Assembly: GCF_045037415.1 (NCBI RefSeq)
Contig: NZ_CP173438.1
DNA: 64,000 bases
Strand: one strand, 5' to 3'
Source of the DNA: Escherichia coli
GTDB lineage: Bacteria; Pseudomonadota; Gammaproteobacteria; Enterobacterales; Enterobacteriaceae
Positions 2,743-40,469 of this stretch are shown in pieces. The translations under genes and the position numbers were made by a program. The notes below the pieces were generated by a model. The model did no database searches. It was not told the origin of the DNA and saw only the letters and a list, made by a program, of their open reading frames with translations. How positions within the stretch are numbered: the stretch's first letter is position 1; the number at the start of each line of letters is the position of its first letter.

Positions 2743-2783
2743 CGCCCCGTTGCCCCCCATGAGGTCAGGCAAAAAAACAATTT

Positions 2784-2871
2784 GGTGAGGTGTCCGAGTG
2801 GCTGAAGGAGCACGCCTGGAAAGTGTGTATACGGCAACGTATCGGGGGTTCGAATCCCCCCCTCACCGCCA
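2784..2871 (+). tRNA. serW: tRNA-Ser (anticodon GGA), class II tRNA with long variable arm, 88 nt, CCA encoded
   Basis: Acceptor stem GGTGAGG/CCTCACC, anticodon loop CTGGAAA (GGA), T-arm GGGGG-TTCGAAT-CCCCC, discriminator G plus CCA. Confidence 0.92.
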
Positions 2872-2883
2872 TATTTAAAGAAG

Positions 2884-2911
2884 AGCTCGTACGAAAGTAC
2901 GGGCTTTTTTT
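2884..2911 (+). terminator. Putative rho-independent terminator of serW
   Basis: Hairpin cgtac-gaaa-gtacg followed by gggc and a T8 run. Confidence 0.5.
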
Positions 2912-2922
2912 TCGCATTTTAT

Positions 2923-2943
2923 CTGCCTGTACGGCAGTGAACT
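2923..2943. repeat. Direct repeat copy 1 (21 bp, ctgcctgtacggcagtgaact) with internal palindrome CTGCC-N5-GGCAG
   Basis: Exact 21-bp match to copy 2, 60 bp downstream. Confidence 0.7.
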
Positions 2944-2982
2944 TGTCATTATTGGCAGACAGGATCCGCGGCAATTTCTAAG

Positions 2983-3003
2983 CTGCCTGTACGGCAGTGA
3001 ACT
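2983..3003. repeat. Direct repeat copy 2 (21 bp, ctgcctgtacggcagtgaact)
   Basis: Exact 21-bp match to copy 1. Confidence 0.7.
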
Positions 3004-3152
3004 CAAATACTACACGTTTAGCCCGTTGTTAATAAAGCAAAACCATCTCAATCTCCTGCTGCCACCCTTTTTTATCCTTACCTACCCGCAGCACTAATTA
3101 TCAATAACTTACCATCATCATCAAAAAAAGGGTCTGAACCTCCTCCCCCCAT

Positions 3153-3190
3153 AAATAAAAAGTCCGTAACCCCTGACGAGATTACGGACT
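3153..3190 (-). terminator. Putative rho-independent terminator of clpA
   Basis: Perfect 9-bp stem agtccgtaa/ttacggact with 12-nt loop; on the minus strand it is followed by a U-rich run (forward ataaataaaa), 25 nt downstream of the clpA stop. Confidence 0.5.
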
Positions 3191-3214: not shown

Positions 3215-5491
3215 TTAATGCGCTGCTTCCGCCTTGTGCTTTTGTGCACTCTGGAATCCGTAAGTCAGCTCATTTTTCTCTTTATCCAGCGCGACGGTGA
3301 CCTGACCGCCGTCCACCAGCGAACCAAACAGCAGTTCGTTGGCGAGCGGTTTTTTCAGGTTGTCCTGGATGACACGCGCCATCGGACGTGCGCCCATTGC
3401 CCGGTCGTAACCTTTCTCGGCCAGCCAGTTACGCGCTTCCTGGCTCACTTCCAGAGAAACACCTTTCTGATCCAACTGAACCTGCAACTCGACGATGAAT
3501 TTATCCACCACCTGATGGATCACGTCGGTTGACAGATGATCGAACCAGATAATGTTGTCGAGACGGTTACGGAATTCCGGTGTAAAGATCTTCTTGATCT
3601 CTTCCATCGCATCGGTGCTGTTATCCTGGTGGATAAGACCAATGGATTTGCGCTCAGTTTCCCGTACCCCGGCATTAGTGGTCATCACCAGCACCACGTT
3701 ACGGAAGTCCGCTTTGCGTCCGTTGTTATCGGTCAGCGTACCGTTATCCATCACCTGCAACAGAATATTGAACACGTCCGGGTGCGCTTTCTCGATTTCG
3801 TCCAGCAGCAGCACCGCATGTGGATGCTTGATGACCGCATCAGTCAGCAAACCGCCCTGATCAAAACCAACGTATCCCGGAGGCGCACCAATCAGACGGC
3901 TGACGGTATGGCGTTCCATATACTCGGACATATCAAAGCGCAGAAGCTCAATGCCCAACGCTTTCGAAAGCTGTACCGTCACCTCTGTTTTCCCGACCCC
4001 AGTAGGGCCGGCAAACAGGAACGAACCGACCGGTTTATGTTCGTGACCTAAACCTGCACGCGCCATCTTAATGGCTTCAGTCAGCGCCTCAATGGCTTTA
4101 TCCTGACCGAAGACCAGCATTTTCAGGCGATCGCCGAGGTTTTTCAGGGTATCGCGGTCACTCTGAGAAACACTCTTCTCTGGAATGCGTGCAATACGGG
4201 CCACCACGGATTCAATATCCGCCACATTAACGGTTTTCTTGCGTTTGCTTACCGGCATCAGACGTGCGCGAGCGCCCGCTTCGTCGATAACATCAATCGC
4301 TTTATCCGGCAGATGACGATCGTTAATGTATTTCACCGCCAGCTCTACCGCCGCACGCACCGCTTTTGCGGTATAACGCACGTCGTGGTGCGCTTCATAC
4401 TTCGGTTTCAGGCCATTGATGATTTGAACAGTTTCTTCGATTGACGGTTCAGTAATATCAATTTTCTGGAAGCGACGCGCCAGAGCACGGTCTTTCTCGA
4501 AAATGTTGCTGAACTCCTGATAGGTTGTCGAACCAATTACGCGGATTTTACCGCTGGAGAGCAACGGTTTAATCAGGTTAGCCGCATCGACCTGGCCACC
4601 AGACGCTGCACCCGCACCGATAATGGTGTGGATCTCATCAATAAACAGGATGCTGTTAGTGTCCTGCTCCAGCTGCTTGAGCAACGCTTTAAAACGTTTT
4701 TCAAAGTCGCCGCGATATTTTGTGCCCGCTAACAGGGAACCGATATCGAGAGAGTAAATCGTACAGTCAGCCATCACTTCCGGCACATCGCCCTGAACAA
4801 TTCGCCATGCAAGCCCCTCCGCAATCGCGGTTTTACCGACACCAGACTCCCCCACCAGCAGCGGGTTGTTTTTACGGCGACGGCAGAGAACCTGAATAGC
4901 ACGCTCCAGCTCCTTCTCACGACCAATTAGTGGGTCGATTCCGCCCACTCGCGCAAGCTGATTCAGGTTCGTCGTGAAATTCTCCATACGTTCCTCCCCA
5001 CCAGCTTGTTCTTCGCTGTTTGGCTGGCTGCCAGGATCAGAAGACTGTGTCGGCTCGTCTTTACGCGTGCCATGAGAGATAAAGTTCACCACATCGAGAC
5101 GGCTGACTTCATGTTTGCGCAACAGATATGCCGCCTGCGACTCCTGTTCGCTAAAGATAGCGACCAGAACGTTTGCACCGGTAACCTCATTGCGACCGGA
5201 GGACTGGACATGGAAGACCGCACGTTGCAGTACACGCTGAAAACTCAACGTCGGCTGTGTGTCGCGCTCCTCTTCACTGGCAGGCAGAACGGGTGTGGTT
5301 TGTTCAATAAAGGCTTCCAGTTCCTGACGGAGCGCAACCAAATCTACAGAACACGCTTCCAGCGCCTCCCGGGCAGATGGGTTACTGAGCAGCGCCAGTA
5401 ACAAGTGCTCGACGGTCATAAACTCATGACGGTGCTCGCGCGCTCTGGCGAAAGCCATATTTAAACTGAGTTCCAGTTCTTGATTGAGCAT
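3215..5491 (-). CDS. clpA: ATP-dependent Clp protease ATP-binding subunit ClpA (758 aa)
   Basis: ORF 3215..5506; known N-terminus [14 protein letters not shown] begins at ATG 5491; two AAA+ Walker A motifs GESGVGKT and GPTGVGKT. Confidence 0.95.
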
Positions 5492-5521
5492 AGGCACCTC
5501 CCCCAATTTTTATGCCTGCAT

Positions 5522-40371: not shown

Positions 40372-40450
40372 GCCACTGCTTTTCTTTGATGTCCCCATTT
40401 TGTGGAGCCCATCAACCCCGCCATTTCGGTTCAAGGTTGATGGGTTTTTT
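40372..40450 (+). ncRNA. rybB: Hfq-dependent, sigma-E-controlled small RNA RybB
   Basis: gccactgcttttctttgatgtccccattttgtggagcccatcaaccccgccatttcggttcaaggttgatgggtttttt matches RybB as recalled; 3' terminator stem ccatcaacc/ggttgatgg plus T-run; in the ybjL-rcdA intergenic region. Confidence 0.85.
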
Positions 40451-40469
40451 GTTGCCTGAAATTTATCTA

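Follow-up and report, generated by a model that had tools for sequence, protein, structure and literature searches.

We assign a probability of roughly 0.9 to the reading that the two short repeats between serW and clpA in the window (the whole 64-kb stretch of Escherichia coli DNA analysed) form E. coli's orphan type I-F CRISPR array, a leftover that most E. coli carry at this site, acting as an 'anti-cas' device against incoming I-F cas genes. The array has the anatomy of a type I-F array and a leader homologous to those of I-F-positive strains, its single spacer has a PAM-flanked target in cas3f, I-F cas genes are absent from the window, and other alleles of the array follow the same pattern. 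The element has been in the literature since 2010–2016, together with where it lies, the family of its repeat and the meaning of an anti-cas spacer; the window carries one allele of this already described array, with nothing of substance different, and it represents no discovery.

The initial annotation had described two identical 21-bp copies 60 bp apart, lying between the serW and clpA terminators, and both points were confirmed. The sequence CTGCCTGTACGGCAGTGAACT occurs exactly at 2923–2943 and 2983–3003 (a start-to-start distance of 60 bp), and the pair is non-random, with two or more matches to CTGCCTGTACGGCAGTGAACT in 0 of 100 shuffles. No third copy was detected in the 64-kb window with up to three mismatches allowed (chance expectation of ~0.01), and the inverted repeat CTGCC-N5-GGCAG was confined to the same two sites of the window. 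A terminator scan mapped the serW terminator to 2877–2912 on the plus strand and the intrinsic clpA terminator to 3192–3159 on the minus strand, forming the downstream edge of the array and the upstream edge of its leader respectively. The whole arrangement is held in a gap of only ~340 bp between serW (tRNA-Ser GGA, 2784–2871, plus strand, identified by ARAGORN) and the clpA ORF (3215–5506, minus strand). The only ORFs of at least 60 amino acids touching the array, 2765–2974 (minus strand) and 2790–2981 (plus strand), both cross serW and were taken as spurious. The first 24 kb of the window is 100% identical to many clinical E. coli isolates.

The 21-nt delimitation and the plus-strand reading of the initial annotation, however, were wrong, as the repeat unit of the array measures 28 nt and reads on the minus strand. 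On the clpA side the copy is 8 nt longer than the shared stretch and spans 2975–3002 (GTTCACTGCCGTACAGGCAGCTTAGAAA), and the serW-side copy at 2915–2942 shares only its first 20 nt. The 21st matching base is a T at 2943 and 3003 that lies outside the repeat, and its match is a coincidence between the last base of the spacer and the last base of the leader. The 60-bp period is the sum of 28 and 32, which is the canonical type I-F period, and a periodicity of 60 has been given for type I-F (PMC3506596). A tandem duplication of a 60-bp unit was rejected, as only 20–21 nt are common to the two units and the remainder of the units is unrelated. This sum and the functional strand had been missed in the first reading, as had the presence, within the 39 bp between the 21-bp copies, of a 32-nt spacer matching cas3f.

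The anatomy of the array was then assigned on the minus strand. The leader-proximal, complete repeat GTTCACTGCCGTACAGGCAGCTTAGAAA (2975–3002) matched the Rfam family CRISPR-DR4 (RF01317; 'CRISPR-4' repeat cluster) over the full model (1–28), scoring 50.1 bits where the gathering score is 35 (E=1.3e-10). It is followed by the single 32-nt anti-cas3f spacer TTGCCGCGGATCCTGTCTGCCAATAATGACAA (2943–2974), assigned from its cas3f matches, and by the terminal, leader-distal repeat (2915–2942; GTTCACTGCCGTACAGGCAG followed by ATAAAATG), which was recognized by its hairpin and a CRISPR-DR4 match of 29.7 bits. The latter score is under the gathering score of 35 because the last 8 nt of this repeat are degenerate, with the first 20 nt intact; such degeneracy is the usual state of leader-distal terminal repeats. 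The suggestion of a pair of small hairpins in the initial annotation was correct, as both repeats have the predicted fold .....(((((.....)))))........, with a 5-bp stem, a 5-nt loop and −8.6 kcal/mol. The hairpin is the binding and cleavage signal of Cas6f/Csy4, which cuts the repeat at the 3′ base of its stem. From this cleavage site a single mature crRNA of 60 nt is predicted (2923–2982, minus strand), only if Cas6f is supplied, consisting of a 5′ handle CUUAGAAA (8 nt), the spacer (32 nt) and a 3′ hairpin (20 nt).

Upstream of the first repeat, a CRISPR leader of ~155 nt (3003–3158, minus strand) was identified by its similarity to the leaders of I-F-positive strains, and contains a putative sigma-70-like promoter, TTGATG-16-GATAAT (3124–3097, minus strand), assigned by consensus match. 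At the other end of the array, a weak terminator-like site for the array transcript (2901–2888, minus strand) uses the same hairpin as the serW terminator. The following features of a type I-F array were found at this locus: repeats, a unique 32-nt spacer, a predicted stem–loop and an A/T-rich homologous leader on one side. Elsewhere in the window, the RybB sRNA was located at 40375–40453 on the plus strand (Rfam RF00110, 105.3 bits), an ordinary and expected feature.

The spacer TTGCCGCGGATCCTGTCTGCCAATAATGACAA corresponds to the coding strand of cas3f and is in frame with codons 916–926 of Cas3f. It matched the cas3f gene of strain AR_0019 (locus L009, 9001–9032) with no mismatch, and those of SCU-306 and PA45B with one mismatch at position 29, which is PAM-distal. 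In all three strains the dinucleotide 5′-CC directly precedes the match; the type I-F PAM has been written as GG, on the opposite strand (PMC3506596). Among 5,426 complete E. coli genomes, 675 had the spacer in the array, 237 had the protospacer only and none had both, an absence of co-occurrence that is partly trivial, since array and protospacer represent alternative allelic states at a single locus, in strains that share phylogenetic ancestry. In the protospacer-only genomes (n=237), the protospacer was annotated as cas3f among the matches listed, and approximately 225 of the 237 I-F-positive genomes differed from the spacer at position 29. The cas6f gene was present in 241 of the 5,426 genomes. 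The 675 genomes sharing the spacer include strains labelled O25b:H4-ST131.

No real match to the spacer was obtained in phage and plasmid collections; the apparent targets in a Salmonella phage and an Enterococcus plasmid were rejected as chance matches of 20–21 nt (E of about 0.2–0.9). A plasmid-borne cas3f with the protospacer was not found in PLSDB, and the lone E. coli 'plasmid' matching the spacer was a record with a chromosomal macA–trxB segment that includes the same array. This record, NZ_CP134387.1 (an 88-kb 'plasmid' in PLSDB, our L012), holds the block macA-macB-cspD-clpS-clpA-[array]-infA-aat-cydCD-trxB, which reflects F-prime-like capture or else misassembly. The main texts of the papers searched did not contain the spacer as an exact 32-nt string.

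We compared the window with the I-F Cas proteins of SCU-306. Using five of these proteins as tblastn queries (Csy2 was left out, being encoded by a pseudogene in the reference locus), no significant match to Cas1f, Cas3f, Csy1, Csy3 or Cas6f was obtained in the 64 kb. The sole notable match was a perfect stretch of nine Cas3f residues at 2974–2948, which is the spacer itself. As no I-F cas homologue lies in the 64-kb window, the array was filed as an orphan rather than as a CRISPR-Cas system, for which adjacent cas genes are the criterion. Two marks of an anti-cas orphan array were present, namely a location between clpA and infA/serW without I-F cas genes and a PAM-flanked spacer match to a cas gene.

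In the strains SCU-306, AR_0019 and PA45B, the genes cas6f-csy3-csy2-csy1-cas3f-cas1f lie between serW and clpA, followed by an array with its leader abutting clpA. The repeat at 2975–3002 has exactly the sequence of those in the active SCU-306 array, where nine copies occur at a 60-bp period, and the segment 2974–3300 of the window is 98.5% identical to the leader side of this cas-adjacent array. A five-way alignment showed the ~100 nt preceding the first repeat to be nearly invariant between orphan and I-F-positive loci. In SCU-306 (L001, 8579–9502) and PA45B (L010, 5987–6910), csy2 carries an internal stop and a pseudogene annotation, and some 'complete' I-F loci may thus be non-functional. 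In AR_0019, the infA-side I-F array is split by IS100 (istA/istB; L009, 800–3866) into two annotated CRISPR blocks; IS100 has also been described in the CRISPR-III locus of strain B7A (PMC3903273).

The three I-F-positive loci also bear on how the orphan arrangement could have arisen. The terminal repeats of their two arrays end in …TATTCACA and …TCTTCAAA, and the orphan terminal repeat (…GGCAGATAAAATG) was absent from all three loci examined. In the window only 2 nt separate this repeat from the serW terminator, and the window-type terminal repeat was also found in orphan alleles of other strains. Furthermore, serW is located between the infA-side array and cas6f in the I-F-positive strains. 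An origin of the orphan array by simple array-to-array recombination in an I-F-positive strain is therefore not supported: the deletion would remove serW, and the terminal repeat …GGCAGATAAAATG is missing from those loci, so that a simple deletion of this kind does not yield the orphan arrangement. This agrees with the view of Touchon & Rocha that the orphan array is older than the extant cas genes (PMC2886076).

The serW gene itself differs between the two groups of strains. Its positions 61/77 (2844 and 2860 of the window) are C61/G77 in all three I-F-positive strains (L001, L009 and L010) and G61/C77 in the window and in each of the other seven strains with an orphan array; the change is compensatory and reverses a single T-stem base pair. 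As C61/G77 is confined to the I-F-positive strains, the I-F-positive haplotype spans serW, which is consistent with import of the whole segment.

The other orphan alleles compared (n=7, K-12/C600 plus six wild strains) have two to four repeats each. Seven of their eight distinct spacers matched cas1f or cas3f of SCU-306 with 1–5 mismatches, and a CC PAM was present at six of these seven. Across lineages, the repeats and leader are conserved and the intervening spacer is wholly different. The proposal of the initial annotation that degeneracy in close relatives would indicate neutral spacer DNA is therefore misleading, as the part that differs is a different CRISPR spacer. Both hairpins are intact in the window allele, unlike in the K-12-type allele, where a G-to-A substitution alters the 3′ hairpin arm of the terminal repeat (L002, 414–441; GGCAG to GACAG); judging from the sequence, this change should weaken Cas6f processing of the only crRNA of that allele.

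Two further variations were seen at the array. In some strains, an element of ~177 bp annotated as 'RtT sRNA' (tyrT-operon repeat family) lies between the serW terminator and the terminal repeat (L004, 412–546; L007, about 410–590), and in L007 a 'hypothetical protein' CDS (495–893) spanning both this element and the array is probably an annotation artefact. A sister allele (E. coli MY504, L003, 501–532; more than 120 genomes at ≥99% identity) has a second, newer leader-proximal spacer, GCACACGTCGAGCTGGTGGGGATTAATGCTGG, for which no match was found among I-F cas genes, plasmids and phages. At 29 of 32 positions this spacer matches one from the type I-E CRISPR-II array (queE–ygcE) of 55989 (L011, 1499–1530), O104:H4 and other strains, with a 2-nt offset and a CC (the I-F PAM) before the match in the I-E array. 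Either both systems sampled one element, or the I-F adaptation machinery took the spacer from the I-E array.

How would such an array act? As no I-F cas genes lie nearby, the array is inert on its own and would yield at most an unprocessed transcript. If a cognate I-F cas operon arrived on a mobile element, cleavage of both repeats by Cas6f would free a single 60-nt crRNA (2982–2923), and the Csy complex loaded with this crRNA would recognize the CC-flanked protospacer in the incoming cas3f. Cas2-3 would then degrade the DNA encoding the I-F system, so that establishment of I-F CRISPR-Cas would be blocked. Such action by the window allele is suggested by analogy, expression and interference of orphan arrays being taken from the literature. 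According to a review by the Mojica group (PMC8616872), Almendros et al. (2016, Nat Microbiol 1:16081) reported constitutive expression of native orphan arrays, their interference with plasmids that bear the full I-F cas set, and priming of spacer acquisition.

It has been debated whether selection maintains the array or whether it is a remnant of cas loss in slow decay (PMC2886076). On the latter account, an ancestral I-F system took up spacers against its own cas genes, this self-targeting selected for loss of the cas genes, and the remaining repeat–spacer–repeat is functionless and decays neutrally. Díez-Villaseñor et al., as cited in PMC2886076 and PMC8616872, proposed that cas-targeting spacers caused the loss of cas. 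The inertness of the array without cas genes would fit a relic, as would the signs of decay in other alleles (the hairpin-breaking G-to-A of K-12/C600, the spacer of L006, truncated to 28 nt, and the point-mutated repeats of L007). However, the leader and first repeat hardly vary between lineages whose divergence over the enclosing 601-bp region is 7–8%, and the window allele, with both hairpins intact and its target at 0–1 mismatch, does not show such decay. At least one cas-targeting spacer is kept in nearly every genome, whereas other spacers are usually lost (PMC2886076), and the interference by native orphan arrays described in PMC8616872 is experimental. Thus we consider a functionless relic unlikely, although it is the alternative that survives best.

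A role independent of Cas proteins in cas-less strains, either as a small RNA or in insulating the convergent clpA and serW units from each other, appears very improbable. A leader-driven transcript is predicted to run antisense towards the serW terminator and to contain two stable hairpins, and, if true, such a role would explain why the leader and repeats are near-invariant in lineages that may rarely meet I-F.

The initial annotation had offered the site of a dimeric DNA-binding protein as one reading of the palindromes; they would then be paired operators through which serW or clpA is regulated. The inverted repeat CTGCC-N5-GGCAG does occur twice, about six helical turns apart. However, the palindrome is the Cas6f/Csy4 RNA stem–loop of an exact I-F CRISPR repeat, which matches a curated RNA family above threshold (CRISPR-DR4, 50.1 bits versus 35) and occurs nine times at a 60-bp period beside cas genes in other strains; moreover, the two sites lie downstream of the terminators of both genes, away from their promoters, and the motif is found nowhere else in the 64 kb. 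We therefore give this idea almost no credence.

Equally negligible is the idea that the two copies are attL/attR-type scars, or a target-site duplication, of an element that integrated at serW and was later deleted. It draws on the use of serW as an island integration site, on an EDL933 record that matches only 2858–2914 of the window (the tRNA 3′ end and terminator, 100% over 57 nt), and on the 177-bp RtT-annotated element inserted at the array site in some strains. The initial annotation had already argued against a tRNA-derived att scar, rightly so, as the repeat has no similarity to the serW 3′ end; in addition, the repeat belongs to the CRISPR-DR4 family and the 32 nt between the copies are a cas3f fragment with a PAM. 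The 57-nt match of EDL933 is of the kind that an island inserted into a serine tRNA gene is expected to show as a short duplicate at its distal end, and is unrelated to the CRISPR repeats. Dispersed repeats of the REP/BIME or MITE type were rejected, as no further copy was present at up to three mismatches within the 64-kb window.

The orphan array remains a good textbook example of a CRISPR array directed at the cas genes of its own system, and may help to explain why I-F cas genes are found in only about 4% of complete E. coli genomes (241/5,426). It also matters slightly for annotation: the two-repeat array is unannotated in most RefSeq records, and one record calls a hypothetical protein across it.

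The closest counterparts are in E. coli itself. Touchon & Rocha (2010) described the array as 'CRISPR3', placed it in the clpS–aat interval, to the clpA side of tRNA-Ser, reported that its spacers match cas1, cas3 and csy2 of the Ypest (I-F) type, and proposed an 'anti-CRISPR' role (PMC2886076). In the nomenclature of the Mojica group the locus is CRISPR-III, with the single cas-less array CRISPR4.1-2, and every E. coli analysed had at least one CRISPR-III repeat unit (PMC3903273, PMC4489801); CRISPR4.1-2 of this locus is also the array of Díez-Villaseñor (2010), and Almendros et al. (2016) dealt with it as the 'orphan CRISPR4 array with anti-cas spacers'. The array of the window shares its locus, 28-nt repeat, leader and terminal repeat with these arrays (CRISPR3, CRISPR4.1-2 or orphan CRISPR4), and CRISPR3/CRISPR4.1-2 likewise have one to three spacers, no cas-F genes and a CC-flanked match to an I-F cas gene.

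The active E. coli I-F systems (for example LF82 and ED1a; here SCU-306, AR_0019 and PA45B) have an identical repeat, 32-nt spacers and the same orientation, with a leader beside clpA that is identical or nearly so. Unlike the window, they have six cas genes, at least nine repeats beside clpA and, in most cases, another array in the infA–serW interval; their terminal repeats end in …GGCAGTATTCACA and …GGCAGTCTTCAAA. Further afield, an identical 28-mer has been reported in papers on Cronobacter, Klebsiella, Legionella and Pectobacterium. The repeat of the window agrees with the Rfam CRISPR-DR4 consensus at 27 of 28 positions, and, like the type I-F repeats and Csy4 (Cas6f) hairpin of Pseudomonas aeruginosa and Pectobacterium, has a 5-bp CUGCC/GGCAG stem and an 8-nt 5′ handle. 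The difference lies in the use of the array: in P. aeruginosa and Pectobacterium it defends the cell together with resident cas genes, whereas the array of the window has no cas partner and its sole spacer targets the cas operon.
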